The position numbers were made by a program, and so were the translations under genes. From assembly GCA_964016885.1 (NCBI GenBank), contig OZ024765.1:13516001-13580000 (forward strand): a stretch of DNA of 64,000 bases, in the 5' to 3' direction. The notes under the pieces were generated by a model that did not search any database, was not told the origin of the DNA, and was given only the letters and a program-made list of their open reading frames with translations. Source of the DNA: Eledone cirrhosa. Taxonomy: Eukaryota. Numbering within the stretch: the stretch's first letter is position 1; every line of letters begins with the position of its first letter. Positions 8,978 through 51,700 of this stretch are shown here, one piece after another.

Positions 8978-9008
<31 letters not shown>

Positions 9009-25940: not shown

Positions 25941-27295
25941 CCCTTTAGCATTTACATTACTCTATATATACTATTATATTTTCGCAGTAAAGGTTTTACC
26001 TCACATAATATCTCACATAACATTTACATTACTCTATATATACTATTGTATTTTCACAGTAAAGAATTTACCCCCACATAATATCTCACTTAACATTTAC
26101 ATTACTCTATATATACTATTGTATTTTCACAATAAAGGTTTTACCTCAAATAATATCTCACATAACATTTACATTACTCTATATATACTATTGTATTTTC
26201 ACAGTAAAGGTTTTACCCCACATAATATCTCACATAACATTTACATTACTGTATATATACTATTGTATTTTCACAATAAAGGTTTTACCCCAAATAATAT
26301 CTCACATAACATTTACATTACTCTATATATACTATTGTATTTTCACAGTAAAGGTTTTACCCCACATAATATCTCACATAACATTTACATTACTGTATAT
26401 ATACTATTGTATTTTCACAATAAAGGTTTTACCCCAAATAATATCTCACATAACATTTACATTACTCTATATATACTATTGTATTTTCACAGTAAAGGTT
26501 TTACCCCACATAATATCTCACATAACATTTACATTACTCTATATATACTATTGTATTTTCACAGTAAAGGTTTTACCCCACATAATATCTCACATAACAT
26601 TTACATTACTCTATATATACTATTGTATTTTCACAGTAAAGGTTTTACCCCACATAATATCTCACATAACATTTACATTACTCTATATATACTATTGTAT
26701 TTTCACAGTAAAGGTTTTACCCCACATAATATCTCACATAACATTTACATTACTGTATATATACTATTGTATTTTCACAATAAAGGTTTTACCCCAAATA
26801 ATATCTCACATAACATTTACATTACTCTATATATACTATTGTATTTTCACAGTAAAGGTTTTACCCCACATAATATCTCACATAACATTTACATTACTGT
26901 ATATATACTATTGTATTTTCACAATAAAGGTTTTACCCCAAATAATATCTCACATAACATTTACATTACTCTATATATACTATTGTATTTTCACAGTAAA
27001 GGTTTTACCCCACATAATATCTCACATAACATTTACATTACTCTATATATACTATTGTATTTTCACAGTAAAGGCTTTACCCCACATAATATCTCACATA
27101 ACATTTACATTACTCTATATATACTATTGTATTTTATTGGTAAAATCTCACTTAATATCGAATCTATGAGATTTTGATATAATTTATTTTGAGAACAATA
27201 CCTTATCATCAGTATGAGCAGCCAGTTATGGCTGGTTTGAACAAAAAAGGGTAAGAAAATTCTGGCCAGATATTGCTGGTTTAAATGCTAAAGGG
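25941..27295. mobile_element. Non-autonomous piggyBac-like MITE carrying ~16 copies of a 72-bp tandem repeat
   Basis: TTAA|ccctttagcattta ... taaatgctaaaggg|TTAA (14-bp TIRs, TTAA TSD); internal period 72 bp. Confidence 0.85.
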
Positions 27296-29318: not shown

Positions 29319-29561
29319 AATAAAAAAATATATATATGTCTAACCCATGCTAGCGTGGAAGATGGACGTTAAACTATGATGATGATGATGATGATATATA
29401 TATATATATAATTATCAACAATAGTAATAAATGGAAAATATCACATCACCTGGTCCAAGAATCGAACTCACAACCTTTCAATTGCAAGCTCAATGCTCTA
29501 ACCACTAAGCCATGTGCCTTCACATTATTCATAGAAATCAATAAATATCCATATGACTCAC

Positions 29562-29824: not shown

Positions 29825-29858
29825 CTAAAAATATAAAATAAACAATAAAAAATATTAA

Positions 29859-30268
29859 CCCTTTAGCATTTACATTACTCTATATATATTATTGTATTTT
29901 CATGGTAAAGGCTTTACCTCACATAAGATTTACATTACTCTATATATACTATTGTATTTTCACAGTAAAGGCTTTACCTCACATAATATCTCACATAACA
30001 TTTACATTACTCTATATAAACTATTGTATTTTCACAGTAAAGGCTTGACCTCACATAACATTTACATTACTCTATATAAACTATTGTATTTTCACAGTAA
30101 AGGCTTTATTTCACATGATATCACACATAATATTGAATCTATGAGATTTTGATATTATTTATTTTGAGAACAATACCTTAACATCAGTATGAATGGCCAG
30201 TTACGGCTGGTGGAACAGAAAGAGGTGTGAGTTTCTGGCCGGATATGGCTGGTTTAAATGCTAAAGGG
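29859..30268. mobile_element. Second piggyBac-like MITE (about 4 internal 72/60-bp units)
   Basis: Same TIRs and TTAA TSDs (29855-29858, 30269-30272). Confidence 0.85.
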
Positions 30269-30535
30269 TTAAAGAATTAAGGATGTTTGGAGTGAGATGA
30301 TCGGAGTTTGGAATTAAAATAGAAGATCTCCTGTAGCATTTTGATTAAATAATTGTTTCTACTGTTGGCACAAGTCCAGCAATTACCCCAGTGCATTACT
30401 GGTACTTTATTTTATCGATCACGTAAGGATGAAAGGCAAAGCTAACCGTGGCAGGATTTGAACTCAGAACGTAAAGGGCCATAACTCTTTACTCTCAAAG
30501 CATCGTATCTGACACTCTACCGATACTGCCAATCC

Positions 30536-30700
30536 ATCATCATCATCAGGTCGAGCTTGCTCGGCTTTCTACGACACGTTTCCTCCATCCATCTCTGTCT
30601 CTCATAGTGTTTGCCAGTTCTTCCGCAGTGCATCCAGTATCGTCCTCAAGCTGCTTGACTTATGTCTTCTTGGGACGACCAGCGTTTCTTGCTCCAATCC
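30536..30700 (-). mobile_element. RTE-clade LINE 3' end
   Basis: Minus strand translates GRPKKT..QLEDDTGC..MRDRDGWRKRVVESRASST*, followed by an (ATG)n tail. Confidence 0.75.
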
Positions 30701-30706
30701 ACCTAT

Positions 30707-31111
30707 TTAAAACTGATAGCGTATGGTCTTCTAAATGTTTTTAATTAAACATTTGGTATATTATCAAATATACTCTACAATGTATACATTCATGTATACA
30801 TCGCTATTTCAGAGCACCAATCCTAATACCTAATTTTTGCTGGACCAGCAATCGCTCTGTATAATCAGCTCCTGATTATTACTGGAATTCTATAAGAATC
30901 CAGCTTCTATAATTTTCAGCGAAAGCAGGGGATTACGTGGTTCTGATGAACACCAATCAGCGAGAAACAGACTGTCAGCTGAAAAGAAGTAAGTGACATA
31001 GTCACTACTTTAAAACTGATAGCGTATGGTCTTCTTAATTAAACATACAGTATATTGCCAAATATCCTATACATACATTCATGTATACATCGCTATTTCA
31101 GAGTACCAATC
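30707..31111 (+). mobile_element. Penelope-like pLTR relic: partial direct repeat surrounding a hammerhead motif (30939-30980)
   Basis: tttaaaactgatagcgtatggtcttct...cagag(c/t)accaatc occurs at ~30707 and ~31009. Hammerhead: GGTT-CTGATGA-..-GAAACAG-a-CTGTC-AGCT. Confidence 0.55.
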
Positions 31112-31865
31112 TGTAAAAGTTTGTTATTTTTGTAAACAGAAATAACAACACAATCGGTACAGTATATGGAAGGGATATATTAGGTTAACGCTTGATGTAG
31201 CAGGTAGAGGGTCTTAATGTTTCAGATGCTAGTCCTTCATCAGAAGAAAGAATGAGAAATAAGATAGATTGAGAGGACGGGCAGGTTGGAATTGGAAAAA
31301 ATGTCTTTAGATAAAAATAACAGGTCCATTCATGTTGACATCTCTTGCAAAACTGTTATATATATATGTATATTAGAAAAAACGCTAGTCTGAAGAGCAG
31401 ATCGACAGTGGAGGCGAGTCCATAGCTACTATGGTTGACCTTGAGCCAATCCTCTGTGAAACCCATGTAACAGATCAATACACAATAAATATCATATACA
31501 TTTAAACAAAACTTCCTCGTTTTTTCTAATATATACATTCAGCCTGTGCATAGAGTGCTTGCTTTAGTAGCAACACCAGTAATTCACCGAATCACCTACA
31601 CACACACATATATATATGATGTGTATATATGTATTTTTTTAATATTAAAAATTGCTTATATATATATATATATATATATCCAATTCTATCATTACTACCT
31701 CAGAGGGCTGACGAGCCATTGATTCCAGAATCAGGCTAGATCGATACAGATCGAACCTTGAGCTGATCAATAGCAAAACACACATCACCAACCAATAAAG
31801 GTAATGGATGAGTAACCATTTGTCCTTGTTTTATCTTATTATATATATATATATATATATATATA

Positions 31866-32600
31866 TCATCATCATCATCATTTTACGTCCACTTTTCCCT
31901 GCTTGTAAGGGTGGGGTGGGTCCTATTCAGCACAGCATCTCTCCACTTGTCACGGTCCTTCGTCATCTCCTCCGTGAGCTTCAGCGATCTGAGGTCTTCT
32001 CTCACCACCTCCGTCCATGTTTTCCGTGGCCTTCCTCTACTGCGTCTACCTTCTACTGGGATTTCTTGGCACTTCTTTACCCAGAAGTCATCCTCCATGC
32101 GCATCACATGTCCATACCATTTCAGTCTTCTCTCCTGCACACCACAACTTATCCCTCTTATACCCAATTTCTCTCTCAACACATCCATGCTCGGTCGTCC
32201 ATGCACTTTGACATTGCACATCCAGCAGAGTATGCTTGCTTCATTTCTCTCCAGCCATTGCATATCCTCTGCAGTTTCTGCCCATGTCTCACTACCATGC
32301 AGCATCGTGCATCTCACACAGGCATTATATAACCGGCCTTTCATTTGTAGGAAGAAACCCTTCTTTGTCAACAGAGGAAGCAACTCCCTAAACTTCTTCC
32401 AACCGGTCCTTATTCTACATACTATGGCCTCGGAGCCCACCCCCTCTCCCATGCTAATCTGATCACCTACGTACCAGAAGCTATCAAACATAGAATCTAC
32501 CTGCATTTGAAAAATGTGTCTATCACTGCGATTACTACTGTCAACTTTCCCTGTACATCTATTGCATATGTTTTGCCTTGTTTGTTCATGCTTGCATGGG
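31866..32600 (-). mobile_element. RTE-clade LINE 3' fragment
   Basis: ORF 31883-32629 with RIRTGWKKFRELLPLL, KGRLYNACVR, HGSETW and ERRLKWYGHV; (CAT)n tail at 31867. Confidence 0.88.
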
Positions 32601-32624
32601 TTCACACACACATACATACATACA

Positions 32625-35600
32625 CACAAAAGTTATTTAGTGTTAATAGTACATAGCTTGTATAGAAACGGGTGGAGTAACTGTAGAGATAAGTGTAAAA
32701 GAGAGACAGGTTCGTTATATTATTAACTATTTCAGTTATAGTTAAAAAAAATAGGCAGATTTTTTGTAGTATAGACTGTTTTAGTTCTAGTTAGGTGTAA
32801 AACAGGCAGTTTTTTTGTATCTTAAACTGTTTTTTTGTAGTTAAGTGTAAATGTAATGTAATCTAATCTGGCCGAGTTTACACTCACAAAGAAGAACCAG
32901 GGCCACCCCTAGGAGCATTGGATTTGGTGTACTTCATATTTGTTTCGGTTGCTGAACACAATCAGGGGTCGCTGCTTCTCCTGAAGGTCAATAGTTCTCT
33001 TCTAACTCGAGCAGGAGCGCCTTTCCATTGTCAATTTACATGGATCATCTTCAAAGCTGCATTGTTCTCAGAACCACTACACCAGTCTTTCGATGTGTGC
33101 AGCTGGAACTACTGCCACCCATTTATTTGGCAGGATTTTTTTTGATTTTTTTTTAGATGGCCGTTGACTCTTATGAGTTATTCCAGCCTTTGTCAGGTTT
33201 TGTCTTTTGTCCTGCAGGGTGTCCAAAATTGCCCTCCTCACCAAGTAAACTTGGAGAGGTTGCCATATTTACGGCCATATCACACTGAAAACACCAGTTC
33301 TCATACGATCACCAAAGTAAAGCAGCGTCGAGCATAGTTAGTTCTTAGATGGTGTAAGCATTAAGTGTAAAACAGGCAGTTTATTTGTATTGTAAGCAGT
33401 TTTTATTGTCTAAAGACTGACTCGAGTTCAGAGGCTCATCAGGCCAGAGCTTACCCCAGTTTACTTGGCATTCTGTGACTGAGAGTACAAGACTCCTCCA
33501 TGGACAGAACGCCAGTCCATTGCAGGGTTAAACCCCCAGCTATTGCTAGTACTCATTTTCAGCTGATTATACTGGAGTGATGTGAAATGAAGTGTTTTAC
33601 TCCAGAAGATAACACAAAACCTACTCCAGAAACACCCATGACATTATGATTGTAAGTCCAACACTCTTATCACCGAAGTAACATGAAATGAAGTATTTTG
33701 TCCAAGAACACGACGTACAGCCATCTCTAAACCCAGCATACAGGAGTGACTGAGGGGAAGATAGCCAGTGATGTAAGCCTATTCCAGTCACAGGAAGGAA
33801 CCATAGAAGTGGTTGATAGCTTCTGCTATCTTTGAAACGTAATTAGCAGTAGAGCTGAGAGTTTAATAGCTAAACTAAGGATAGGTTGGAATAATTTGAT
33901 AGAGTTACTTTGTGAAGGTGCATGGCTTAGTGGTTAGAGTATTGGGTTGCAATCAAAAGGTTGTGAGTTTATATCTCGGACTGGGTGATGTGTTGTGTCC
34001 TTGAGCAAGACACTTTATATCACGTTGCTCCAGTTTACTCAGCTGTAGAAGTGAGTTGCCATCCTGCCAAATCAATGGGTGGCAGTAGTTCCAGCTGCAC
34101 ACATAGAAAGACTGGTGTAGTGATTCTGAGAACAATGTGGCTCTGCAGATGATTAATGTAAATTGACAATGGAAAGGCACTCCTGCTCGAGTTAGAAGAG
34201 AACTATTGACCTTCAAGAGAAGCAGAGACCCGTGATTGTATTCTGCAACTGAAACAAATATGAAGTACACCAAATTCAATGCTTCTAGGGGTGGCCCTGG
34301 TTCTTTTTATTTGTGAGTGTAAACTTGGCCAGATTAGATTACTCCCACTGTTGACCACAAAAGTTATTTAGTGTTAATAATACATACCTGGTGTAGTAAC
34401 GGGTGGAGTACTTGTAGAGATAACTGAAAAAGAGAGATAAGTTAGTTATATTATTAATTATTTCAGTTATAGTTAAGTAAAAAACGGGCAGTTTACTTGT
34501 ATTGTAAACAGTATTTGCTGTTCTTCAGCGTAAAACAGACAGGTTAGTATATTATAAACAGTTTTGTTGGTGATTAAGAGAACATTGTCAGTTTTTTTAA
34601 TTATAAACAGTTTTTTGTGTAATTAAGTATGAAACAAGCAGTTTATTTGTATTGTAAACTGTTTTTGTTGCAGTTAAGTGATCATTATGGCTGTTTTCTG
34701 TGTGATTAAGTGTAAATCAAGCATTTTATTTCTATTGTAAACTGTTTTTGTTGCAGTTAAGTAAAAAAGCAAGCAGTTATTTATTTTGTAAACTGTTTTT
34801 CTTGCAGTTAAGTAAAAAAACAAGCAGTTTATTTGTATTTTATACTGTTTTTGTGGTCTAAAATCTGTCTCAACCTCAGAGGCTCATCAGGTTTGTGCTT
34901 CTATGAGTTTGTGTCATGTTATGCAACTGAGAGTACAAGATTCTCCCTTGGACAGAATGCCAGTCGATTGCAGGGTTAAACCTCCTAGCTATTGCTGGTA
35001 CTCATTTTCAGCTGAATATACTGGAGTGATGTGAAATGATGTATTTTGCTCTAAAACACAACACACAGCCATCTCTAAACCCAGCATACAGGAGTGACTG
35101 ATGGGAAGATAGCCAGTGATGTAAGCAAATTCCAGTCACAGGAAGGAACCATAGAAGTGGTTGATAGCTTCTGCTATCTATGAAATGTAATTAGCAGTAG
35201 AGCCGAGAGTTTAATAGCTAGAATAAGGATAGGTTGGAATAATTTGAGAGAGTTACTTTGTGAAGGTGCATGGCTTAGTGGTTAGAGTATTGGGTTGCAA
35301 TCAAAAGGTTGTAAGTTTATATCTCGGACTGGGTGATGTGTTGTGTCCTTGAGCAAGACACTTTATATCATGTTGCTCCAGTTTACTCAGCTCTAGAAAT
35401 GAGTTGCCATCCTGCCAATTCAATGGGTGGCAGTAGTTCCAGCTGCACACATAGAAAGACTGGTGTAGTGGTTCTGAGAACAATTTTCAGATGATTAATG
35501 TAAATTGACAATGGAAAGGCGTTCCTGCTCGAGTTAGAAGAGAACTATTGACCATCAAGAGAAGCAGAGACCCCTGATTGTATTCTGCAACTGAAACAAA

Positions 35601-35966
35601 TATGAAGTACACCAAATCCAATGCTCCTAGGGGTGGCCCTGGTTCTTCTTATTTGTGAGTGTAAACTTGGCCAGATTAGATTACTCCCACTGTTGACCAC
35701 AAAAGTTATTTAGTGTTAATAATACATACCTGGTGTAGTAACGGGTGGAGTACTTGTAGAGATAACTGTAAAAGAGAAACATGTTAGTTATATTATTAAT
35801 TATTTAAGTTATAGTTAAGTAAAAAACAGGTAGTTGACTTGTATCGTAAACAGTTTTTGCTGTTCTTCAGTGTAAAACAGGCAGTTTAGAATATTATAAA
35901 GTTTTGTTGGTGATTAAGAGAACATTGTCAGTTTTTTTATTATCATAAACAGTTTTTTGTGTAATT
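32625..35966. repeat. Diverged, partly rearranged units of the 1.6-kb composite satellite (inverted piece at ~32860-33135)
   Basis: Same blocks as 48.8-64 kb. The MDLVYFIFVSV pseudo-ORF is on + at 32918 but on - elsewhere. Confidence 0.8.
33267..33359 (+). pseudogene. 5S rRNA-derived fragment (pseudogene or SINE3 head), internally deleted
   Basis: tacggccatatcacactgaaaacaccagttctcatacgatcaccaaagtaaagcagcgtcgagcatagttagttcttagatgg matches the 5' ~85 nt of animal 5S rRNA with multiple substitutions. Confidence 0.8.
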
Positions 35967-36358
35967 GGTCTAGTAGTTGGCGTTGTTGTTGTTGTTGGTG
36001 TTGTTGTTGTTGGTGTTTTTGGTGTTGTTGGTGTTGTTGTTGTTGGTGTTGTTGTTGGTGATGTTGTTGGTGTTGTTGTTGGTGTTACTGTTGTTGTTGT
36101 TGGTGTTGTTGTTGGTGTTGTTGCTGTTGTTGTTGTTGGTGTTGTTGCTGTTGTTGGTGTTGTTGTTGGTGTTGTTATTGGCGTTGTTGGTGTTATTGTT
36201 GTTGGTGTTGTTGGTGTTGTTGTTGGTGTTGTTGTTGTTGTTGGTGTTACTGTTGTTGTTGTTATTGTTGGTGTTGTTGGTGCTGTTGTTGTTGTTGGTG
36301 TTGTTGGTGTTGTTGTTGGTGTTGTTGTTGGTGTTGTTGTTGGTGTTGTTGTTGTTGG

Positions 36359-36389
<31 letters not shown>

Positions 36390-36501
36390 GGCGTTGTTGT
36401 TGGTGTTGTTGGTGTTGTTGTGACTGTAGCTGTAGTAGTAGTAGTCATTGTGGTAGTTGTAGTGTGTAGGGGGGATGTAGGCGTGATGGTTACCATGTAG
36501 G
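35967..36501 (-). CDS. Duplicated, truncated PTS exon that runs into satellite sequence (in-frame stop at 35894)
   Basis: Identical acceptor and [18 protein letters not shown] start. No clear splice donor before the satellite junction. Confidence 0.5.
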
Positions 36502-36586
36502 CTGGAACATGGAAGATGTGAAAATGTCAAATTAATTATTCCAAAAAAATTGTACATATATATATATACACATATATATATTTATG

Positions 36587-36651
<65 letters not shown>

Positions 36652-36652
36652 G

Positions 36653-36715
<63 letters not shown>

Positions 36716-36828
36716 TTGTATGTATGTGTATATTTTTATATATATGTATATATATATATGTATGTATATAAACATATATATATGTATATACGTATATATA
36801 TGTATATATACATATATATATACGTATA

Positions 36829-36859
<31 letters not shown>

Positions 36860-36981
36860 GTATATATACAGATATATATGTATATATGTATATATACAGA
36901 TATATATGTATATATATACATAAATGAATATATACATATATATATATGTATACATGTGTGTATGTATATATATATATATAT

Positions 36982-37034
<53 letters not shown>

Positions 37035-37067
37035 CATATATACACACACACACACAAACACACACAC

Positions 37068-37159
<92 letters not shown>

Positions 37160-38913
37160 GCATACATACATATATACTTATATATACAGATATATATACA
37201 CACACACACACATATATATATATCTAGTAAATATGGTACATATGGTACATTCACCACAGCTGAACACATTGCTGTCCTTTCTCGTTAAACTCTGCCAAGT
37301 CTAATACTGTGCAGGGGTGTTCCAGCAGGGGGCATAACAGGAGGTGCTGTATAGTCTGTAGTTCCATGTTGCAATCACACAAAACGTCCCAATCCTTCAA
37401 ATATCCCCATTTTACAAGGTCGACTTTTGCATGTCCAACACCAGATTGTAGTTTGTTTAGGTATTTCCACACTGCGAGACAGTGAATTATGTAACATAAT
37501 TTTATGGTAATATTATGTAAACACATGTAACAGACTATTTCATGAAATAAATATTTCTTCAATTTTCATCAGATTTTGCCTAGTTTTTTCTTGTGCCATA
37601 TTCACTTTAACCCTTTAGCATTTACATTACTCTATATATACTATTATATTTTCGCAGTAAAGGTTTTACCCCACTTAATATCTCACATAACATTTACATT
37701 ACTCTATATATACTATTGTATTTTCACAGTAAATGTTTTACCCCACATAATATCTCACATAACATTTACATTACTCTATATATACTATTGTATTTTCACA
37801 GTAAAGATTTTACCCCCACATAATATCTCACTTAACATTTACATTACTCTATATATACTATTGTATTTTCACAGTAAATGTTTTACCCCACATAATATCT
37901 CACATAACATTTACATTACTCTATATATACTATTGTATTTTCACAGTAAAGGTTTTACCCCACATAATATCTCACATAACATTTACATTACTGTATATAT
38001 ACTATTATATTTTCGCAGTAAAGGTTTTACCCCACATAATATCTCACATAACATTTACATTACTGTATATATACTATTATATTTTCGCAGTAAAGGTTTT
38101 ACCCCACATAATATCTCACATAACATTTACATTACTGTATATATACTATTATATTTTCGCAGTAAAGGTTTTACCCCACATAATATCTCACATAACATTT
38201 ACATTACTGTATATATACTATTATATTTTCGCAGTAAAGGTTTTACCCCACATAATATCTCACATAACATTTACATTACTGTATATATACTATTATATTT
38301 TCGCAGTAAAGGTTTTACCCCACATAATATCTCACATAACATTTACATTACTCTATATATACTATTATATTTTCGCAGTAAAGGTTTTACCCCACATAAT
38401 ATCTCACATAACATTTACATTACTCTATATATACTATTGTATTTTCACAGTAAAGGTTTTACCCCACATAATATCTCACATAACATTTACATTACTCTAT
38501 ATATACTATTATATTTTCGCAGTAAAGGTTTTACCCCACATAATATCTCACATAACATTTACATTACTCTATATATACTATTGTATTGTCACAGTAAAGG
38601 TTTTACCCCACATAATATCTCACATAACATTTACATTACTCTATATATACTATTGTATTGTCACAGTAAAGGTTTTACCTCACATAATATCTCACATAAC
38701 ATCTCGTATACGAGAGACGTGTGTTGACGTGTGTGAACAAGCTCGGCTACCGAGTCGGATTTACTTACTCAAAAAGTGAGTTTTGATTAATTTTTTTATA
38801 CTGTAATATACGTTAACCCCTTGCCTTGGTCGTCAAACTTTGAGTTTATTTATTTTCGCCCCTTTTTGGGGCGAATTTTCCAGTTAAAAATTTATTACGG
38901 CAAACTAATAGAA

Positions 38914-40656
38914 ATGGACGGAATTTTCACATCTCATCCTAACGTGAAAGCCACGCCCCCTAAGAAAGGTGATACAGAGAAGCTAGAAGCACAAGGCTCT
39001 AAGTCTTCCCTCCTGACTTCTGCAAAAGAAACATGGAACACGGAATTAAAAGAAAAATTTGTAAAAATGGGTGAAAACCCAGAAAGTCACATAAACGCAG
39101 ACAAAAACAACAACGACAATAACAGCAATAGTCACAACACCAACCAAGGAAAAAATAACGATAACACCAAACAAAGCGAACCCACTACTGGTGCCTCCTT
39201 TGCACAGGCGGTCCGGAAAACACAAACCTGCAAGCAACTGGACATTACAACTCTGAGAGAAAAGATGAAGGAAGCGAAACAGTATGTAACTTTCAAAGAA
39301 GGAGGAGACTTCACAATCACCTCCCCACAAGAAATCAAAAGAGACACGACGCTAAGAACGATATCTTTCAGAACAATTTCCAACATAACAAGGAAACCAA
39401 CTCAATTATCCCAAAAAGAGATTGAGCTGGTCCTAAAAAATGTGTGGAGTGATATATCGTTCATACAAAAAGGGCCACTCTATGGGAATATAACGGTCCT
39501 AATGAAGGATCAATTGACGGCCAGGAAATACTCTGTGGCACCAATTGTTTCCAAGCTACATACATTTTTCCCCACATATTTAGGGAAAAGAACGCAGAAG
39601 ATAAGGGTCTCCGGAATCCGGCCAAATGCATGCATTTCCTGGGTACTAACAGGATTTTTAGAAGACGAGGACGGAATCCTCTCAGTAGGAGAAGTCACCA
39701 CAGACGTTTTCGGCGGTTTGAGCGTGGAGGTTCTGGTCCAAATGAGACCAGAACGAATAGCTAGAATACCACAGAGGGTGTCCCTCGATGGAGAAACATT
39801 TATATATATTTCAGCCGAGGGTAGGAGGCCCATATGTTACTACTGTTCAAGCAGGGGTCATCTAAGGGCTGCTTGTCCTCAATTGACAAAAAAAAAGGCT
39901 CTTTTGCCTACACCCCACACACCACCACCGCCACCACCACCACCACCACCACCTCCACCACCACCACCACAACAACAACAAAAACAACAGGGAAAAATAA
40001 CACAAGACACGGCCCCACCCAAAACAACTCCCAAAACACACACAAATACAACAAAACCCCAAAATACACCACTACCGGACAGCACGGACGAGGACCCAGC
40101 GGAAACGGCACCTAGTGACGAAGAGGGGGAACCCTTCCAACCTGTAAAAAGGAAAAAAAGAAAGCACCACTCGAACATAAACGAAACAAACACACAACCA
40201 CCAACAAAAACAAAACAAACAGAACAAACAAAATCCGCCCCACCCCAAAACATAACACATACAACAAAACGTAAGCACACACAAGAACAACAAACAAACA
40301 CAACACAAATAAAACAGTATACATACATTAACACAAATAACAAAGAACTAGTAAAAACAATACACAAAGACCCTTTGGTGGAAACTGAAGGGCAATTCTT
40401 TGCAAGCGCGGCCAACAAACCGCATTTAAAAATGATAAGACTCCCAATGGACACCTATGCAAAACTAAGAGAGAACTTTCCTGAGGACGTGGGGAAAACA
40501 TGTACTCGACCCTATAACCGCGTCCTCTTGAAACGTTTCCCCACCCACACCTCACCAAACACCCCCACTCCACCACAGAACAACACCCCACCAAACAACC
40601 CCTCCAATACGCCCATGGATATTGTGCAACCTGCTCCTCAGGAGCCGAACAGGTAG
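38914..40656 (+). CDS. ORF1 (Gag-like RNA-binding protein with a zinc knuckle), 580 aa
   Basis: First ATG at 38914; SFAQAV motif; CYYCSSRGHLRAAC (CX2CX4HX4C); poly-Pro tract; basic VKRKKRK stretch. Confidence 0.88.
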   Translation: MDGIFTSHPNVKATPPKKGDTEKLEAQGSKSSLLTSAKETWNTELKEKFVKMGENPESHINADKNNNDNNSNSHNTNQGKNNDNTKQSEPTTGASFAQAVRKTQTCKQLDITTLREKMKEAKQYVTFKEGGDFTITSPQEIKRDTTLRTISFRTISNITRKPTQLSQKEIELVLKNVWSDISFIQKGPLYGNITVLMKDQLTARKYSVAPIVSKLHTFFPTYLGKRTQKIRVSGIRPNACISWVLTGFLEDEDGILSVGEVTTDVFGGLSVEVLVQMRPERIARIPQRVSLDGETFIYISAEGRRPICYYCSSRGHLRAACPQLTKKKALLPTPHTPPPPPPPPPPPPPPPPQQQQKQQGKITQDTAPPKTTPKTHTNTTKPQNTPLPDSTDEDPAETAPSDEEGEPFQPVKRKKRKHHSNINETNTQPPTKTKQTEQTKSAPPQNITHTTKRKHTQEQQTNTTQIKQYTYINTNNKELVKTIHKDPLVETEGQFFASAANKPHLKMIRLPMDTYAKLRENFPEDVGKTCTRPYNRVLLKRFPTHTSPNTPTPPQNNTPPNNPSNTPMDIVQPAPQEPNR

Positions 40657-40677
40657 GTCCTTCCTCTTTTAACCAAC

Positions 40678-43600
40678 ATGGCTGATATAAGAGTTGGGTG
40701 TCTGAATGTACGTGGCCTGGGACTGTCTTGGAAACAAGGCAAACTTTTAAACGATCTCAGGTCGCACAGAATGGATGTAATGGCTATTTGCGAGTCCAGG
40801 ATCAGCAGCGAGCACCAACTGGCGCCCCTCTTCGACGACTTTGAGATCTTCGCATCTCTCTGTCAACCGGGGGGTGGGGGTGGAGTTGTTCTGCTGCGAA
40901 AACATCTGGGCCTCGCCATACAGAAGGTGCACCTGGACCCGGAGGGTCGACTGGTGGTTTTAGACGTCGGCAGTAGTGAAAGTGGAGCCCTTAGACTAAT
41001 AGCTGTGTACGCCCCTTTTTGGGCAGCGCGGCCGGAATACTTCCAACGTCTGGAAACTTTTCTGGGAACGTCCCGCTCCTTGCTTTTAGTGGGGGACTGG
41101 AATGGTATCCTGGATGCACGTTGGGACTATGTAGGGGCATGTGCCAATAGAGGGGGGTGTAAAAGCCTCAAAAGGTTAATCGGCCGATTTGACCTGGCCG
41201 ATAGATATCGACTAGATTTTCCGACTGTACCACTATGGAGGTGGACCAATCGCAGTGGAACATCTAGGTCGTACCTAGATAGGGTCCTAGTTAGAGAGAA
41301 CGATAGGGACACATTTAGCTGTCCAAAAATGTTCATGGTTGACTATTCGGATCACAAGTTAGTGACCTGCATAGCCAACCTTGATAGAACCCATAGACAG
41401 GGACCCGGTTACTGGAAGCTGAACTTGTCCTTACCGAGAAGCAAAGCTTACAGTAAACGGATTAGCACGTTAGTTAAGCAGAGTTTGACAGGGGCAATTG
41501 TCAACAACAGGTGGTGGAGCTCTCTTAAGAGAGCAATTAGAATAGAATCGATAGGTTTTAGTCAGGAATTAGCAAGGGATAGGAACAAGACGGAAAGGGA
41601 ATTAGTAGATAGAGTAGAAGAGGCGATTAGGAGTGGCAATGTAGCCGGCGTGCTGGCATCAAGAATGGCCTTAGACCAGTTCTTTGAGGTGAAGCATGAA
41701 GGCTGCGTTGTCAGGAGTAAAATACGTGCTCTGGGTAATGAGGGAGCCAAAGCTGTGAGCTGGGCCCGAGTGACAGAGGCAAAAAGTGGGAACAAGTCCA
41801 CGATTCGGTCTTTGAAGGACCAGGATGGGCGTGTGATCCTTGAACCTGGGCAGATGTGTGCGGCCTTTCAGCGGCACTTTGCACGACTGTTCGAGAGGGG
41901 CGGCGCGCCGGGTGAGACTATGGATTTCAATCCATACCTCGACGGTCTGCCGCGCCTCTCGGACGCGGAGGCGAAGTCCTGCGAAAGGACGATTTCAGCT
42001 GCTGAGATAGGGGCGGCGCTGAGCCAATGCGGCAAACGCAAATCCCCGGGTCTCGATGGTCTACCATACGAGCTATATGTAGCGATGCCGGACTTGTTCT
42101 CCGATATCCTCGAAGCGGTCTACTGCAACTGGCAGCAGAACGGGAGAATTCCCAGTTCTGTGACCAAGGGCGTAGTTACGGTGGTGAGGAAGGATGAGAA
42201 CAAGGGGGATGACATAAGTAACTTCAGGCCCATAACTCTGCTAAATACAGAGTTAAAGATTTTGGCCAAGGTGTTAGCGAAGAGGTTGGCGCTTGTCGTT
42301 GGAAACCTGGTGGGAGAAGCGCAGACATGCGCAATCCCGTCCAGGTCCATTCACGACAATCTCCACCTTATGCGATACATCATAGAGAGGGTAGGGAATG
42401 AACCCGGCTTTGGTGGGGCCCTGATCAACTTGGATCAATCTAAAGCTTTCGATAGGGTTGACCATCGTTACCTGGATGCGGTGCTCGCGGCGGCAGGCTT
42501 CGGACCCGTTTTCAGGGGTTGGATTGCTGCGATGCACAGCAGCAACGTCTGCTCAAGGGTCAAGGTGAACGGCCACCTCTCGGAGCCGTTCCAAATCATG
42601 CGATCCATCCGACAGGGATGCCCTCTCTCCTCCCTACTGTATGTGCTGGCTCTTGAGCCACTACTGCGGAAGTTGGAGCGGTTGCAGGGCATCCCTTTGG
42701 AACCGGGATTGCAGAAAGCGGCGTCGGCCTACGCCGATGACGTGACAGTAATGGTGTCGAAAACCTCGCAAATCGGTGAGATCGGCACCTTACTGGAGGA
42801 ATATGAAAGGTTTACAGGAGCCAAGTTGAACCGGGACAAGTCCGTCGGTTTGCAACTCGGAACATGGAGAGGCAAACCGATGCCCTCCAACGACGTCGTT
42901 GGACGCTGGACGGAGGGCCCGGTGAAGCTGCTTGGGGTCTGGTTCGGACCAGACCTCCAGGTGGAGAAAAACTGGAACGAGGTAACGGCCAGGGTGTTTG
43001 CACTCACCCAGAAGTGGGCCCAGTGCAAACTATCCCTGAAAGGTCGAGCGGAGGTGGCGAATACTTATATAGCATCCGTCATCTACTACCGCTTGACCGT
43101 CGTGCCTTGCCCAGTGAAAAGACTCGCCAAAATGGAGTGCGCGCTATTCCAATTTCTTTGGAACAAGCGGACCCCTTTGGTGAGGAGATCCATCTGCTGT
43201 CAACACCCTTCGAAAGGAGGGCTGGGGATGCCGTGGCTACAGATGCGTAAACACGCATTAAGGCTACGGCACCTCCAGGTATTCCTCACCGGTCAACCGG
43301 TGTGGGCCCCGTTTGTGAGGCGAGCCTTTCCCAGACTCGTCTCGCTCACCGAGCTGCAATCCTGGGTCAAGCAAAGACCGAGAAAAGTGGGCGACTGGCA
43401 CATTGAATGTGCCCAGGCACTCACGGCCCTCTGGAAAGCGGACCCGGCAATCAGTGGAGACTCCACGTCGACATTCTATAGAGGGTTGGTACGCAGCAGG
43501 TGCGACGATGCTCTCGGAGAAGCTCTAGGCATGGAGGAAGATGAACTGGCCAGTCTGTTCGGTAGGACGTTTGGCCCTGGACCGATGGACAACTTCCAAA

Positions 43601-44001
43601 AGTCCCTGGCTTGGCAGTGCTACCGAGGGGCTCTACCCGTTCGAGACAAGCTCCACAGGCATGGGAGCCTGGGTAGAGATCCTTTGAATAAGATCTGTCC
43701 GAGATGCGTGCATGATGACGAAACCGTTGCGCACGCATTCGTACACTGCCCAGGCATTGCTGACCTGTGGGGCTATGTGGAACGACTACTGTCGAGGGTG
43801 GGACCAATCCGGTTGACCACCGAGTCCATTGTCACGATCAAACCGCCTCCCCCTTTCAAAAACGAAGGAGAGGCGGTTTTTCTCTGTGTGGTAGCCATGG
43901 CTAAAGAAGTTGTATGGTGGACGAGGCTGAAAGGGCTGAGGTCAGACACCTTTCTCTCCGGCCAACAACTGGTCCCCTTTTTCAAATACCATTTTAAATG
44001 A
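40678..44001 (+). CDS. ORF2: APE endonuclease, reverse transcriptase and C-terminal Cys-His domain
   Basis: APE motifs GCLNVRG, VYAP, GDWN, SYLDR, YSDH. RT motifs KSPGLDG, FRPITLLN, LDQSKAFDRVDH, RQGCPLS, YADD. C-terminal CPRC..HAFVHC. The frame continues past the TGA to a TAG ending at 44112. Confidence 0.95.
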   Translation: MADIRVGCLNVRGLGLSWKQGKLLNDLRSHRMDVMAICESRISSEHQLAPLFDDFEIFASLCQPGGGGGVVLLRKHLGLAIQKVHLDPEGRLVVLDVGSSESGALRLIAVYAPFWAARPEYFQRLETFLGTSRSLLLVGDWNGILDARWDYVGACANRGGCKSLKRLIGRFDLADRYRLDFPTVPLWRWTNRSGTSRSYLDRVLVRENDRDTFSCPKMFMVDYSDHKLVTCIANLDRTHRQGPGYWKLNLSLPRSKAYSKRISTLVKQSLTGAIVNNRWWSSLKRAIRIESIGFSQELARDRNKTERELVDRVEEAIRSGNVAGVLASRMALDQFFEVKHEGCVVRSKIRALGNEGAKAVSWARVTEAKSGNKSTIRSLKDQDGRVILEPGQMCAAFQRHFARLFERGGAPGETMDFNPYLDGLPRLSDAEAKSCERTISAAEIGAALSQCGKRKSPGLDGLPYELYVAMPDLFSDILEAVYCNWQQNGRIPSSVTKGVVTVVRKDENKGDDISNFRPITLLNTELKILAKVLAKRLALVVGNLVGEAQTCAIPSRSIHDNLHLMRYIIERVGNEPGFGGALINLDQSKAFDRVDHRYLDAVLAAAGFGPVFRGWIAAMHSSNVCSRVKVNGHLSEPFQIMRSIRQGCPLSSLLYVLALEPLLRKLERLQGIPLEPGLQKAASAYADDVTVMVSKTSQIGEIGTLLEEYERFTGAKLNRDKSVGLQLGTWRGKPMPSNDVVGRWTEGPVKLLGVWFGPDLQVEKNWNEVTARVFALTQKWAQCKLSLKGRAEVANTYIASVIYYRLTVVPCPVKRLAKMECALFQFLWNKRTPLVRRSICCQHPSKGGLGMPWLQMRKHALRLRHLQVFLTGQPVWAPFVRRAFPRLVSLTELQSWVKQRPRKVGDWHIECAQALTALWKADPAISGDSTSTFYRGLVRSRCDDALGEALGMEEDELASLFGRTFGPGPMDNFQKSLAWQCYRGALPVRDKLHRHGSLGRDPLNKICPRCVHDDETVAHAFVHCPGIADLWGYVERLLSRVGPIRLTTESIVTIKPPPPFKNEGEAVFLCVVAMAKEVVWWTRLKGLRSDTFLSGQQLVPFFKYHFK

Positions 44002-46397
44002 AGGATCAGAATGGAGAGAGAGGTGCTCTACCCCAGCAAGTTTTATGAAAGGTGGGTGAAAGTAGGGAGAATGGCCAGAGTGAATGGGTCTTCTCTCTAT
44101 ATCAGCCTGTAGGTGAAAGAAGAGGAAAAAGAGGAGACGAGGGAAGCACCTACTCTTTGTGCTCCTGAGGAGAAGGGTTACACATTTTTTCCGGGGTGTG
44201 TGCGACCCATGTTAATGCCCCCTCCCTATTGAGGACTTCGTTTGTTGTTGTTATTTCATTGTTATATTTTTGTACTCGTTAATTATATGTAAACTTCCCC
44301 CCTTGTATCTGTCCCTACCTTTTGTGCCCTAGTGGCAAATAAAGAAACCACTCTATATATACTATTGTATTTTCACAGTAAAGGTTTTACCCCACATAAT
44401 ATCTCACATAACATTTACATTACTCTATATATACTATTGTATTTTCACAGTAAAGGCTTTACCTCACATAATATCTCACATAACATTTACATTACTCTAT
44501 ATATACTATTGTATTTTCACAGTAAAGGTTTTACTCCACATAATATCTCACATAACATTTACATTACTCTATATATACTATTGTATTTTCACAGTAAAGG
44601 TTTTACCCCACATAATATCTCACATAACATTTACATTACTCTATATATACTATTGTATTTTCACAGTAAAGGCTTTACCTCACATAATATCTCACATAAC
44701 ATTTACATTACTCTATATATACTATTGTATTTTCACAGTAAAGGTTTTACCCCAAATAATATCTCACATAACATTTACATTACTCTATATATACTATTGT
44801 ATTTTCACAGTAAAGGCTTTACCTCACATAATATCTCACATAACATTTACATTACTCTATATATACTATTGTATTTTATTGGTAAAATCTCACATAATAT
44901 CGAATCTATGAGATTTTGATATAATTTATTTTGAGAACAATACCTTATCATCAGTATGAGCAGCCAGTTATGGCTGGTTTGAACAAAAAAGGGTAAGAAA
45001 ATTCTGGCCAGATATGGCTGGTTTAAATGCTAAAGGGTTAAATTACTCTGTGAAATCTCCTTGGAACCTATGTGCCACACTCAATGGCACCTTTCGTATC
45101 ATCAAGATACTTATGTTACACAACTCCAGTATCCATGTTGAGCACAATTAACTGGTAAGTATATTTGAATATATCAAAAACTAATGAAAGAGGTTTGACC
45201 ATGGATCAGACGAAGGAAGCAATGCTTCCATTGCTCATAGTACCTGTCTGTTGGTCAATACTATTGACAGAAATATCATAACTCTCAACAGAAGCATCAC
45301 AACTCCTAGCATAAACATCACAAATCCTAGCATAAACATCACAACTCCTAGCATAAACATCACAACTCCTGGTAAAAGCATCACAACTTCTGATTGAAGC
45401 CTCACAACTTCTGATTGAAGCCTCACAACTTCTGATTGAAGCCTCACAACTCCTGATTGAAGCCTCATAACTCCTGACAGAAGTATCACAACTCCTCACA
45501 GATGAGTCACAACTTCTACAGAAATCTCACAACTCCTGACAAGAGTTTCACAATTCCGGACAGAAGCTTCACAACTCCTAACTGAAGCTTCACAACTCCT
45601 GACAGAAGCTTCACAACTCCTGACAGAATTTCACAACTCCTGACAGAAGCTTCACAACTTCTGACAGAAGCTTCACAACTCCTGACAGAAGCTTCACAAC
45701 TCCTGACAGAAGCTTCACAACTCCTGACAGAAGCTTCACAACTCCTAACTGAAGATTCACAACTCCTGACAGAAGCTTCACAACTCCTAACTGAAGCTTC
45801 ACAACTCCTAACTGAAGCTTCACAACTCCTGACAGAAGCTTCACCACTCCTAACTAAAGCTTCACAATTCCTGACAGAAGCTTTACAACTCCTGACAGAA
45901 GCTTCACAACTCTTGACAGAAGCTTCACAACTCCTGACAGAAGCTTCACAACTCCTAACTGAAGCTTCACAACTCCTAACTGAAGCTTCACAATTCTTGA
46001 CAGAAGCTTCACAACTTCTGACAGAAGCTTCACAACTCCTGACAGAAGCTTCACAACTCCTGACAGAAGCTTTACAACACCTGACAGAAGCTTCACAACT
46101 CCTAACTGAAGCTTCACAACTCCTGACAGAAGCTTCACAACTCCTAACTAAAGCTTCACAACTCCTGACACAAACTTCACAACTCCTAACTGAAGCTTCA
46201 CAATTCCTGACAGAAGCTTCACAACTTCTAACAGAAGCTTCACAACTCCTGACAGAATCTTCACAACTCCTAACTGAAGCTTCACAACTCCTGACAGAAG
46301 CTTCACAACTACTGACTGAAGCTTCACAACTTTGATAGAAGTGTCACCATTCCTTTGAACATGCCAAACAGAGAATTAAGTAGAAAAAAAAACTTAC

Positions 46398-46527
46398 TTT
46401 CAAAACATCCAATAACTGTCAAAGAGACATCCATTGGTTTATCAGAGACTGTTGATTGGAAATTGATCTTGATCTCGTTTGAACTGGTTCCTTCTGGTAT
46501 GGTAGCAGTTTCATTGGCTTTGAATGT
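46398..46527 (-). CDS. Duplicate of exon B
   Basis: Identical splice sites and reading frame (offset 17,885 from 28513-28642). Confidence 0.75.
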
Positions 46528-47446
46528 CTATTGAAAAAAGAATACATGACATAGGAATACAGATTATATATATCTTGAGCTGACTTTTGGGAGGCCCCCA
46601 TACAGCTCTGAGTTCTTCATCTTCAGTGTATACTGATTAATGTTCAGAGCCATCCTCAGCATTCTCGTGTAGCACCCATCCACCATCTGAGTGAGTTTCT
46701 TGGTCAGTGTCCAAGTCTCAGACCTGTACAACAACACAGACTCCACTACAGCAGGACATGCTCACCGACATCCAGAGTTGACACTGCATTCAGTGCTCCT
46801 GTGGGAGCCCCTGCATGGACACACTGGAAGGCGAAGACCGAGGTTAACATATATGTTGATGCCCTAAGGACAGACACTGGTCTCTTCCAGAGGCAAGACA
46901 TGGCAGCAATAATGAGGGACAGAGACCGCTGGAGAGAACTTGTCCATGGATCTTTGGAATTTTACTTCCTGATGATTTCTCCGGAATGAAACAGTTCAGT
47001 CTTGTGTAAGCCTTTCTATATTAAATATATATATATGTTAAGTATTTCCGTGGAAAAGGTACAGAGCTATTTAATTATGTAATAAACAGCACAATATAAT
47101 TATTCCATTACCCAAGGTTTCACGAAGTCAGACGATTCTAACAGAGGTGTCTGTTAGAAATCCTGGGTCATGGAATAATTATATTGTATTGTTTATTACA
47201 TAAAATAAAAAAATATATATATGTCTAACCCATGCTAGCGTGGAAGATGGACGTTAAACTATGATGAGGATGATGATGATATATATATATATATAATTAT
47301 CAACAATAGTAATAAATGGAAAATATCACATCACCTGGTCCAAGAATCGAACTCACAACCTTTCAATTGCAAGCTCAATGCTCTAACCACTAAGCCATGT
47401 GCCTTCACATTATTCATAGAAATCAATAAATATCCATATGACTCAC

Positions 47447-47709
47447 CCGAATTATGTTGGAATTAGCATTCCGAAAAATTAAAACAAATTTTGCCACATT
47501 TTTATGTTTTCGCAAAATTATTTTGGCTCCATATTTCAAAATCCCTTTCTTAATTTTCACTATAACTTGTGATGAAACAAAGGGTTGTAATTTCCACCCT
47601 GGTCCTGTTGGTCGTATCAGTTTAGGAGATTCCAAAGTCGATAATTGGATACTGGAATCTGGGATATATTCCTTCTTTGTCATTCCATCGACAAATCGAC
47701 ATTTTCCAA
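47447..47709 (-). CDS. Duplicate of exon A
   Basis: Identical splice sites; the one difference noticed is synonymous (GTC/GTT, Val). Confidence 0.75.
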
Positions 47710-47743
47710 CTAAAAATATAAAATAAACAATAAAAAATATTAA

Positions 47744-48573
47744 CCCTTTAGCATTTACATTACTCTATATTTACTATTGTATTTTCATAGTAAAGGCTTT
47801 ACCTCACATAAGATTTACATTACTCTATATATACTATTGTATTTTCACAGTAAAGGCTTTACCTCACATAATATCTCACGTAACATTTACATTACTCTAT
47901 ATATATTATTGTATTTTCATGGTAAAGGCTTTACCTCACATAAGATTTACATTACTCTATATATACTATTGTATTTTCACAGTAAAGGCTTTACCTCACA
48001 TAATATCTCACATAACATTTACATTACTCTATATATATTATTGTATTTTCATGGTAAAGGCTTTACCTCACATAAGATTTACATTACTCTATATATACTA
48101 TTGTATTTTCACAGTAAAGGCTTTACCTCACAGAATATCTCACATAACATTTACATTACTCTATATATACTATTGTATTTTCACAATAAAGGCTTGACCT
48201 CACAGAATATCTCACATAACATTTACATTACTCTATATATACTATTGTATTTTCACAGTAAAGGCTTTACCTCACAGAATATCTCACATAACATTTACAT
48301 TACTCTATATAAACTATTGTATTTTCACAGTAAAGGCTTTACCTCACAGAATATCTCACATAACATTTACATTACTCTATATAAACTATTGTATTTTCAC
48401 AGTAAAGGCTTTATTTCACATGATATCGCACATAATATTGAATCTATGAGATTTTGATATTATTTATTTTGAGAACAATACCTTAACATCAGTATGAATG
48501 GCCAGTTACGGCTGGTGGAACAGAAAGAGGTGTGAGTTTCTGGCCGGATATGGCTGGTTTAAATGCTAAAGGG
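47744..48573. mobile_element. piggyBac-like MITE (paralog of 29859-30268) with the array expanded to ~10 units
   Basis: Same TIRs and TTAA TSDs, with a longer internal array. Confidence 0.85.
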
Positions 48574-48789
48574 TTAAAGAATAAAGGATGTTTGGAGTGA
48601 GATGATCGGAGTTTGGAATTAAAATAGAAGATCTCCTGTAGCATTTTGATTAAATAATTGTTTCTACTGTTGGCACAAGTCCAGCAATTACCCCAGTGCA
48701 TTACTGGTACTTTATTTTATCGATCACGTAAGGATGAAAGGCAAAGCTAACCGTGGCAGGATTTGAACACAGAACGCAAAGGGCCATAA

Positions 48790-51700
48790 CTCCTGCTCGA
48801 GTTAGATGAGAACTATTGACCTTCAAGAGAAGCAGCGACCCCTGATTGTGTTCTGCAACTGAAACAAATATGAAGTACACCAAATCCAATGCTTCTAGGG
48901 GTGGCCTTGGTTCTTCTTATTTGTGAGTGTAAACTTGGCCAGATGAGATTACTCCCACTGTTGACCACAAAAGTTATTTAGTGTTAATAATACATACCTG
49001 GTGTAGTAACAGGTGGAGTACTTGTAGAGATAACTGAAAAAGAGAGACATGTTAGTTATATTATTAATTACTTCAGCTATAGTTAAGTAAAAAACGGGCA
49101 GTTTACTTGTATTGTAAACAGTATTTGCTGTTCTTCAGCGTAAAACAGACAGGTTAGTATATTATAAACAGTTTTGTTGGTGATTATGAGAACATTGTCA
49201 GTTTTTTTAATTATAAACAGTTTTTGTGTAATTAAGTATGAAACAAGCAGTTTATTTGTATTGCAAACTGTTTTTGTTGCAGTTAAGTGATCATTATGGC
49301 TGTTTTCTGTGTGATTAAGTGTAAAACAAGCATTTTATTTCTATTGTAAACTGTTTTTGTTGCAGTTAAGTAAAAAAGCAAGCAGTTTATGTTGTAAACT
49401 GTTTTCTTGCAATTAAGTAAATAAACAAGCAGCTTATTTGTATTTTATGCTGTTTTGGGGTCTAAAGACTGTCTCATTCTCAGAGGCTGATCAGGTTTGT
49501 GCTTCTACGAGTTTGTGTGGTGTTAAGCAACTGAGAGTACAAGACTTCTCCATGGACACAATGCCAGTCCATTGCAGAGTTAAAATCTCTCAAGCCCAGA
49601 AACACATTAGACCAGTGTTTATTCAAGTATCCTTGGCACTTTATATTCTTATTATGACATAACACAGTAAAGTTATTTAGTGTTAATAGTACATACCTGA
49701 TGTAGTAATGGGTGTAGTAATTGTAGAGATAACTGTAAAGAGAGACAAGCTAGAGTTAAGTAAAAAAGCTATGCAGTTTTTGTATTGTAAACTGTTTTTG
49801 TTGCAGTTAAGTGAAAAAACAAGCAGTTATTTATTTTGTAAACTGTTTTTCTTGCAGCTAAGTAAAAAAACAAGCAGTTTATTTGTATTTTATACTGTTT
49901 TGGGGGTCTAAAATCTGTCTCAACCTCAGAGGCTCATCAGGTTTGTGCTTCTATGAGTTTGTGTGGTGTTAAGCAACTGAGAGTACAAGATTCCCCCATG
50001 GACAGAATGCCAGTCCATTGCAGGGTTAAACCCCCAGCTATTGCTGGTACTCATTTTCAGCTGAATATACTGGAGTAATGTGAAATGAAGTATTTAAATC
50101 TAAAACAACACACAACCATCTCTGAACCTAGAATACAGGAGTGACCGAGTGGAAGATAGCCAGTGATGTAAGCCTATTCCAGTCACAGGAAGGAACCATA
50201 GAAGTGGTCGATAGCTTCTGCTATCTATGAAATGTAATTAGCAGTAGAGCCGAGAGTTTAATAGCAAGAATAAGGATAGGTTGGAATAATTTGAAAGAAT
50301 TACTTTGTGAAGGCACATGGCTTAGTGGTTAGAGTAATGGGCTTGCAATCAAAAGGTTGTGAGTTTATATCTCGGACTGGGTGATGTGTTGTGTCCTTGA
50401 GCAAGACACTTTATATCACATTACTCCAGTTTACTCAGCTGTAGAAATGAGTTGCCATCCTGCCAAATAAATGGGTGGCAGTAGTTCCAGCTGCACACAT
50501 AGAAAGACTGGTGTAGTGGTTCTGAGAACAATGTGGCTTTGCAGATGATTAATGCAAATTGACAATGGAAAGGCACTGCTGCTCGAGTTAGAAGAGAACT
50601 ATTGACCTTCAAGAGAAGCAGCGACTCCTGATTGTGTTCAGCAACTGAAACAAATATGAAGTACACCAAATTCAATGATCCTAGGGGTGGCCCTGGTTCT
50701 TTTTATTTGTGAGTGTAAACTCAGCCAGATTAAATTACTCCCACTGTTTACCACAAAAGTTATTTAGTGTTAATAATACATACTTGGTGTAGTAACGGGT
50801 GGCGTACTTGTAGAGATAACTGTAAAAGAAAAACATGTTAGTTATATTATTAACTACTTCAGTTATAGTTATGGGCAGTTTACTTGTATTGTAAACAGTT
50901 TTTGCTGTTCTTCAGTGTAAAACAAACAGTTTAGTATATTATAAACAGTTTTGTTGGTGATTAAGAGAACATTATGTCAGTTTTTTTAATTATAAACAGT
51001 TTTTTGTGTAATTAAATATGAAACAAGCAGTTTATTTGTATTGTAAACTCTTTTTGTGGTCTAAAGTATGTCACAATCTTTATGAGTTTGTGTAGTGTTA
51101 AGCAACTGAGAGTACAAGACTTCTCCTTGGACAGAATTCCAGTTCATTGCAGAGTTAAAATCTCTAAAAGCCCAGAAACACATTAGGCCAGTGTTTATTC
51201 AAGTTTCCTTGGCACTTTATATTATTATTATGACATAACACAGTAAAGATATTTAGTGTTAATAGTACTCACCTGATGTAGTAATGAGTGGCGTTATTGT
51301 AGAGATACCTGTAAAGAGAGACAAGTTAGAGATAAGTAAAAAAAACAAGCAGTTTATTTATCTTGTAAACTGTTTTTATCGCAGTTAAGTAAAAAACAAG
51401 CAGCTTATTTGTATTTTAAACTGTTTTTGTGGTCTAAAGTCTGTCACAATCTGAGAGGCTGATCGGGTTTGTGCATTTATGAGTTTGTGTGGTGTTAAGC
51501 AACTGAGAGTACAAGACTTCTCCATGGTCAGAATGCCAGTCCATTGCAGAGTTAAAATCTCCCAAGCCCAGAAACTAAAATAGGCAGTTTTTTCTATTGT
51601 AAACTGTTTTTGCTGCATTTAAGTAAAAGAGAGACAGGTTAGTTATATTATTAATTATTTCAGTTATAGTTAAGTAAAAAACAGGCAGTTTAGAATATTA

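Follow-up and report, generated by a model that had tools for sequence, protein, structure and literature searches.

In a 64,000-bp stretch of the Eledone cirrhosa genome (contig OZ024765.1, positions 13,516,001 to 13,580,000; hereafter the window, whose own coordinates are used throughout), a 5,647-bp long interspersed nuclear element (LINE) with two open reading frames (ORFs) occupies positions 38703-44349, where it interrupts an array of 72-bp units inside a TTAA-flanked element. The target specificity of this LINE for one site in the 72-bp unit is supported by sequence comparison, in that its 3' junction with the array was seen in public sequencing runs from three studies. The original prediction, made from the letters of the window, had a LINE nested in the 72-bp array of a miniature inverted-repeat transposable element (MITE) with TTAA ends and 14-bp terminal inverted repeats (TIRs). 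This anatomy was confirmed in both coordinates and TIR match: the host element at 37611-45037 has TTAA on either side, and its TIRs agree at 14/14 positions.

Recurrence of the insertion junction

Among the public runs listed, 15/19 carry the element or part of it, and 7/19 (labelled X here) were examined by aligning contigs or reads. The 3' junction was surveyed with the stretch 44215-44366, for which run X2 gave 83 aligned contigs; contig depth is not copy number, and the on-target share reported here comes from depth and not from counted loci. In X2, the family-specific contig of the 3' untranslated region (UTR) had a depth of 2,487. A 61-bp junction contig (44318-44366) showed 0 differences across 17 flank bases at a depth of 1,837 (74% of 2,487), and depths added up over the last bases of the stretch (44365-66) came to 2,052, or 83% of the family 3' UTR depth. 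The identical 3' junction was found in X1 (to 44361, 12 flank bases) and in X5 (to 44371, 22 flank bases), and it is also spanned by raw restriction-site-associated DNA (RAD) reads of X18, which have few starts. A retrotransposon family of the non-LTR kind (LTR, long terminal repeat) has been counted as target-specific when more than 20% of its flanks are of one repeat type (PMC4494074; here and below, papers are cited for particular passages). By contig depth, 74-83% of the LINE family in X2 meets the 72-mer at one and the same base at its 3' junction, and the outcome named beforehand as telling against specificity, namely unrelated flanks with no enrichment for the 72-bp repeat, was not seen. 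At the array density of the window, where 72-bp arrays make up 6.4% of the sequence outside the LINE, the chance of hitting one exact base in one orientation is at most about 4.5e-4 (about 0.05%).

Two further runs were uninformative on the flank: the family contig of X6 stops at 44347, and X7 shows only the tail of a (TATC)n-flanked relative that is described below. X5 and X6 belong to one study with other organism labels, and since carry-over from organism A is possible they are not evidence of species range. Exact 3'-end patterns had no match in metagenome, prokaryote-genome or viral contigs, and no RNA run was among the public runs listed as carrying the element. Within the window, 36/53 units match the 17-base flank and 26/53 match a 29-base flank; because part of the units match, the unbranched junction contig fits a target preference and an RNA-carried flank alike.

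Compared with the empty site, 7 bp of the 72-bp unit are gone at the LINE site. A target-site duplication made by the LINE was rejected, none being present at a site where 7 bp of target were deleted instead. The 3' end of the LINE has no poly(A), and the 5' junction, with the same 7-bp loss, is identical in one X5 contig.

The depth of the ORF1 contigs in X2 (1,959-2,244) is about 83% of that of the 3' UTR, so that most copies of the family would be full-length. Relative to the near-identical contigs listed, the LINE copy shows 8/2,708 (X1), 4/1,081 (X2) and 9/2,648 (X5) differences, a divergence of 0.30-0.37% that marks the family as young, and the depth of rare-variant X2 contigs (about 6-15) suggests a family copy number in the low hundreds. 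A possible independent insertion of the copies is favoured by the existence of an empty duplicate of the site, taken up below, together with the contrast in divergence between MITE arms (9-10%) and the LINE (0.30-0.37%). As a separate observation, the alleles of the LINE at 39015 and 39807 are missing from the X1, X2 and X5 contigs and common in X17 reads (23/103, and about 56% of 36,959), which suggests sub-lineages that differ between animals, with few read starts at 39807.

Coding capacity, clade and nearest relative

The element has two ORFs, and its ORF2 runs from an N-terminal APE-type endonuclease through a reverse transcriptase (RT) to a C-terminal zinc motif, which is the layout of Tx1-clade LINEs. 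ORF2 matches the Pfam domains Exo_endo_phos, RVT_1 and zf-RVT with its catalytic motifs present; its closest solved structure is human L1 ORF2p (E 1e-51), and its nearest named homologue is from Argonauta hians (64%), with Xenopus tropicalis following at a distance (29%). Taken by itself, the Argonauta match would make an octopod host probable. The LINE had been described as full-length, which holds; ORF2, however, is cut by a premature stop near its 3' end. This stop is private to the copy at 38703-44349, and nearly all other copies are without it: 0/209 X17 reads carry it, and 20,916/20,950 of X2 depth reads otherwise. ORF1 has a weak zf-CCHC match (E 0.0069, under the Pfam cut-off), and its N-terminal half resembles ZCCHC3/RRM-type clusters (Atlas look-alikes at 0.90-0.92, one of them ZCCHC3-type), which we take as a lead. 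A sequence search with ORF1 gave no homologue and no match to protein P0105, and its predicted fold (pLDDT 36.6) is too low in confidence for use.

Several features of the LINE sequence itself were recorded. Its start, 38703-38714, is a perfect 12-bp palindrome. Neither the overall fold of the 5' UTR (z -1.22) nor the hairpin at the 3' end (z 0.46) was significant, and no copy of the 72-bp unit longer than 9 bp was found inside the LINE. The RNA at 40655-40700, around the start of ORF2, can pair with that at 44085-44130, around its stop and 3.4 kb away, in a duplex of -40.5 kcal/mol; the best other window reaches -31.6, and the mean is -15.9 (sd 4.9, n=1,102). The stretch 40653-44112 is putatively intron-like, with GTAGGT resembling a splice donor at the stop of ORF1 and TAG resembling an acceptor at that of ORF2; its excision would restore an identical ORF1 end with a new stop.

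The assignment to the Tx1 clade in the original prediction was supported by an RT tree, and the LINE likely belongs to that clade. A search with alignment A3 gave 80 loci, and Rfam scans of 40/80 found U2 beside six, 5S beside two and U1 beside one. The FastTree tree comprised 120 sequences (77 loci, 42 proteins and the window element), with L041, L043 and L080 dropped as short. In this tree the window element groups with P0001 and the Argonauta protein (support 0.997), and the enclosing clade (local support 0.957) contains all nine RNA-gene-flanked loci; the tree is midpoint-rooted and its clades are labelled by flank and not by name. No named Tx1 protein was among the results of the homologue search. 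Mutsu-type elements target 5S genes. Keno-type elements target U2 (PMC4494074). In the printed junctions of the RNA-gene-flanked relatives, an A-run is present in 5/6 and one is unresolved; the window LINE has none. At L047:8079-8233, an APE-RT relative is followed by a U1 snRNA match, and this relative is possibly a U1-targeting element.

A far more abundant relative is evident near the 3' end, where X2 depth across 44287-44310 climbs to about 105,000, roughly 40 times that of the LINE family. It shares 44282-44347 with about nine differences in 66 bases, differs in the UTR upstream of this, and runs on into (TATC)n, a continuation backed by 734 and 839 X18 reads. Because ORF2 relatives of like depth (140,000) extend to 44180, the abundant tail most likely belongs to a sister LINE, its tail and ORF2 pieces lying on separate records; a short interspersed nuclear element (SINE) sharing the 3' end of the LINE is a possible source of the same tail. 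In both flanks, the 72-mer and (TATC)n, TCTAT lies near the end of the element.

The host MITE and its surroundings

Perfect 14-bp TIRs with TTAA are present in 4/4 MITE copies of the window (TTAA starts at 25937, 29855, 37607 and 47740). Because the 72-bp unit starts within the left TIR, it would be an amplified left-subterminal piece of the MITE. MITEs of the piggyBac type have TIRs of 12-19 bp with a CC[C/T]T end, and Kolobok ends are AGGRR (PMC2872659, PMC6004289). The host MITE begins with CCCT next to TTAA, so that a piggyBac affiliation is supported by its ends. Kolobok was rejected as the host superfamily, since the TIR starts with CCCT and not AGGRR. The ORF list of the window, four ORFs of which were scanned against Pfam, shows no recognisable piggyBac-like ORF.

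The MITE lies in a tandem segmental duplication of the window, about 23.4-36 kb against 36-49.6 kb (23453-36000 / 35973-49600), with two MITEs in each copy. Around the MITE the duplicates have 20 differences in 2,193 aligned bp (0.9%; 0.4-2.9% by segment); divergence is mostly 0.4% and rises to 2.9% left of the first MITE. The arm of the host MITE and that of its empty duplicate at 25941-27295 are 98.8% identical. The original prediction took this duplicate for an empty paralogous MITE; because both of its unique flanks are shared with 37611-45037, it instead shows that MITE insertion in its empty state, carried in the upstream duplicate, and an independent empty paralogue at 25941 was ruled out on the same ground. 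The independent insertion is the pair at 29859 and 47744, whose right arms differ by 9-10% from those of the 25941/37611 pair. It is possible that the 25941 copy lost a LINE through recombination of the array. An argument from divergence that the LINE is younger than the duplication was rejected, as the divergences of duplicate and LINE overlap. Coordinates are given in Table 1.

Table 1. Features of the LINE-bearing MITE and of the other MITE copies, in window coordinates.
Feature	Position	Strand	Remarks
Left TTAA target-site duplication of MITE	37607..37610		
Left 14-bp TIR	37611..37624	+	Starts CCCT; final 6 bases double as first 6 of the tandem unit
Left array part	37619..38702	+	15.0 units of 72 bp; stops 3 bases into unit 16
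LINE 5' UTR	38703..38913	+	Opens with 12-bp palindrome; junction bridged by one run X5 contig
ORF1	38914..40656	+	580 aa; single CCHC knuckle at aa 307-323
ORF2	40678..44112	+	APE endonuclease aa 22-226; RT aa 511-755, YADD at 685; C-terminal zinc motif aa 1007-1024
Premature ORF2 stop	43999..44001	+	Deletes last 37 codons; homologues read through to stop at 44110-44112
LINE 3' UTR	44113..44349	+	AATAAA at 44338, 6 bases ahead of junction; no poly(A)
Right array part	44350..44877	+	7.3 units; 44350 is the common 3' junction base
Non-repetitive right MITE arm	44878..45037	+	Terminates in right 14-bp TIR
Right TTAA of MITE	45038..45041		
Empty counterpart MITE	25941..27295	+	Upstream segmental duplicate; 16.5 units; both unique flanks in common with 37611-45037
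Second independent MITE insertion, duplicate A	29859..30268	+	Right arm 10% divergent from first
Second MITE insertion, duplicate B	47744..48573	+	Empty

Elsewhere in the window, 7316-24036 on the minus strand holds a threonine/proline-rich, mucin-like open frame of 5,600 codons, of which the duplicate retains a 550-bp start remnant at 35894-36526. A 21-bp tandem repeat occurs at 27523-28469 and 45288-46331 in 35 and 50 copies, with both strands open (LLTEASQ heptads on the plus strand), and units of about 1.6 kb, composed of 51-bp subrepeats, form a tandem array at 48790-64000 and 32600-35970. The minus strand also carries a mariner-type transposase fragment at 3942-4709 (Transposase_1, E 2.9e-22) and an open frame at 31883-32632 that has no Pfam hit and presumably resembles the C-terminal end of an RTE-type LINE protein.

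Proposed insertion route, rival readings and known systems

From these comparisons, the young two-ORF LINE probably reaches its 72-mer site by sequence-specific target-primed reverse transcription, a process established for APE-type LINEs (PMC1950540, PMC1919474). In the 72-bp unit, the APE domain would nick the bottom strand at the TT/ACTCTAT step, and reverse transcription would then be primed at the nick. Since AATAAA and the junction are just 6 bases apart, the transcript probably continues into the next unit; it may pass the signal briefly, and its read-through tail might then anneal to the nicked strand for exact priming, two steps put forward with less assurance than the nick. Annealing of this tail with exact priming would give one invariant, tail-less junction. 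The original prediction further supposed that the MITE may be a safe harbour for the LINE and could carry it along if mobilised by a piggyBac transposase; both ideas are conjecture.

In the foremost rival reading, one ancestral LINE-in-MITE was amplified, either through piggyBac transposition or as 72-bp arrays recombined with and converted one another, and the 25941 duplicate shed its LINE when the units on either side recombined. Such amplification would account for the similar shares of copies that are full-length (about 83%) and on target, for the perfect TIRs of 4/4 MITE copies and for a 5' junction in X5 that is identical down to the 7-bp loss; arrays turn over fast, and the overlapping divergences of duplicate and LINE fit it as well. 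Yet the host MITE is a resident shared with the empty duplicate, and the two window insertions of its family are 9-10% apart. The nearest relative is likewise bound to one flank type, (TATC)n, and the clade contains target-specific elements. The junction contigs of X1 and X5 moreover break at different flank positions, as expected of varied host units, although low coverage could mimic this. On balance we regard joint amplification as unlikely. Alternatively, the enzyme may read no more than a TCTAT-type motif, with the 72-mer as the commonest good match, the MITE incidental and no RNA read-through needed. In both flanks TCTAT does come a few bases at most from where the element ends, the endonucleases of Tx1L and TRAS1 reportedly recognise about 10 bp (PMC1919474), and at least two X2 contigs match to 44360 only and then exit the repeat; however, (TATC)n is abundant and still 74-83% of LINE family depth goes to the 72-mer, through a junction that is invariant and tail-less, which makes recognition of a short motif quite improbable. 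Landing by chance of a non-specific LINE in AT-rich repeat DNA would be helped by the 6.4% share of arrays in the non-LINE window, but with at most about 4.5e-4 expected against 74-83% observed it is refuted unless the X2 depth is artefactual, and we give it next to no credence.

Sequence-specific insertion into the 72-mer, the reading we prefer, has several observations against it. Full-length depth (1,959-2,244) is close to on-target junction depth (1,837-2,052), which is also expected from joint amplification, and no 5'-truncated on-target copy was seen among the junction matches listed. The duplicates, at 0.9% (0.4-2.9%), are too near the 0.3% of the LINE for the events to be ordered. Just 23/46 X18 reads at least 95% alike extend to 44366, 17-26% of X2 family depth is unaccounted for, and the DNA into which at least two X2 contigs depart at 44360 is non-repeat. 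The RT tree, finally, is midpoint-rooted and holds no labelled Tx1L or mammalian L1.

More tentatively, a (TATC)n-targeting Tx1 lineage may have given rise to the MITE-targeting family through the TCTAT of the 72-mer site, with the flank on read-through RNA serving as priming guide and the endonuclease little changed; we hold such a target switch doubtful, though worth stating. The LINE family would then have split from its much more abundant relative tied to (TATC)n when it landed at the site in the unit that contains TCTAT, which is the most speculative step of the proposed route. It is an open question how targets change in site-specific LINEs, and it is studied mostly across very distant families. 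The LINE and its close (TATC)n relative form a pair with different targets in one genome, which would allow swaps of endonuclease and 3' tail. If the switch is true, it would be a convergence on the frog arrangement of Tx1L in Tx1D and would offer a closely related pair for finding the basis of APE-LINE specificity. If the insertions are independent, the LINE is a base-precise APE-type retrotransposon of a young, mostly full-length family, with tens of sites or more in each array cluster.

That some Tx1 families have DNA transposons or microsatellites as their targets is established (PMC4494074). As with the window LINE, the crocodilian Tx1-Mar and Tx1-9_AMi prefer DNA transposons (Mariner-N4_AMi and Harbinger; PMC4494074); their hosts are of other superfamilies, whereas the target here is one exact base of a tandemly amplified unit. 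Kibi at (TC)n, Koshi at (TTC)n and crocodilian families at (TTCC)n/(TTTC)n have microsatellite flanks like those of the abundant relative (PMC4494074), whose repeat is (TATC)n, which the passages cited do not name; the window LINE, in contrast, uses a complex 72-mer. Among APE-type site-specific LINEs, the RNA 3' end has been proposed to anneal to the target in R1Bm and SART1 of the silkworm (PMC7265360), which belong to the R1 clade and have ribosomal DNA or telomere targets, whereas for the window LINE such annealing is only inferred. Tandem amplification, internal or of the whole element, is known in the TTAA MITEs Xmix/Xstir of Xenopus and CMITE of coral; CMITE has TIRs of 13-14 bp starting CCCT, as the host MITE does, whereas Xmix is of Kolobok type with AGGRR ends, and the passages cited do not mention targeting of these elements by LINEs (PMC6004289, PMC2872659). 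In Octopus vulgaris, 13 recently active L1-Tx1 and six piggyBac families are described, and a term search of the main text of that study found none of 'target', 'nested' and 'site-specific' (PMC13282606). A literature search, whose scope did not extend to Repbase or Dfam, found no published description of the LINE family. It is probably a new Tx1 family with target specificity, of a kind already known from Tx1L in Tx1D and from Tx1-Mar.

In the frog system, the Tx1L site lies in the internal tandem repeats of Tx1D, and insertion of Tx1L makes a target-site duplication. Tx1L is an APE-RT LINE that inserts specifically in Tx1D, a non-autonomous piggyBac element of Xenopus laevis (PMC4494074, PMC1950540, PMC1919474, PMC6719617, PMC1635306), and the window LINE is likened to it in arrangement, as another APE-RT LINE in a piggyBac-like MITE. 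The window system differs from the frog system in being found in a mollusc, in its unrelated 72-bp target, and in the loss of 7 bp of that target with no target-site duplication. The principle was already known, and the niche of a LINE in a piggyBac-type MITE, known from Xenopus, recurs here in a mollusc.

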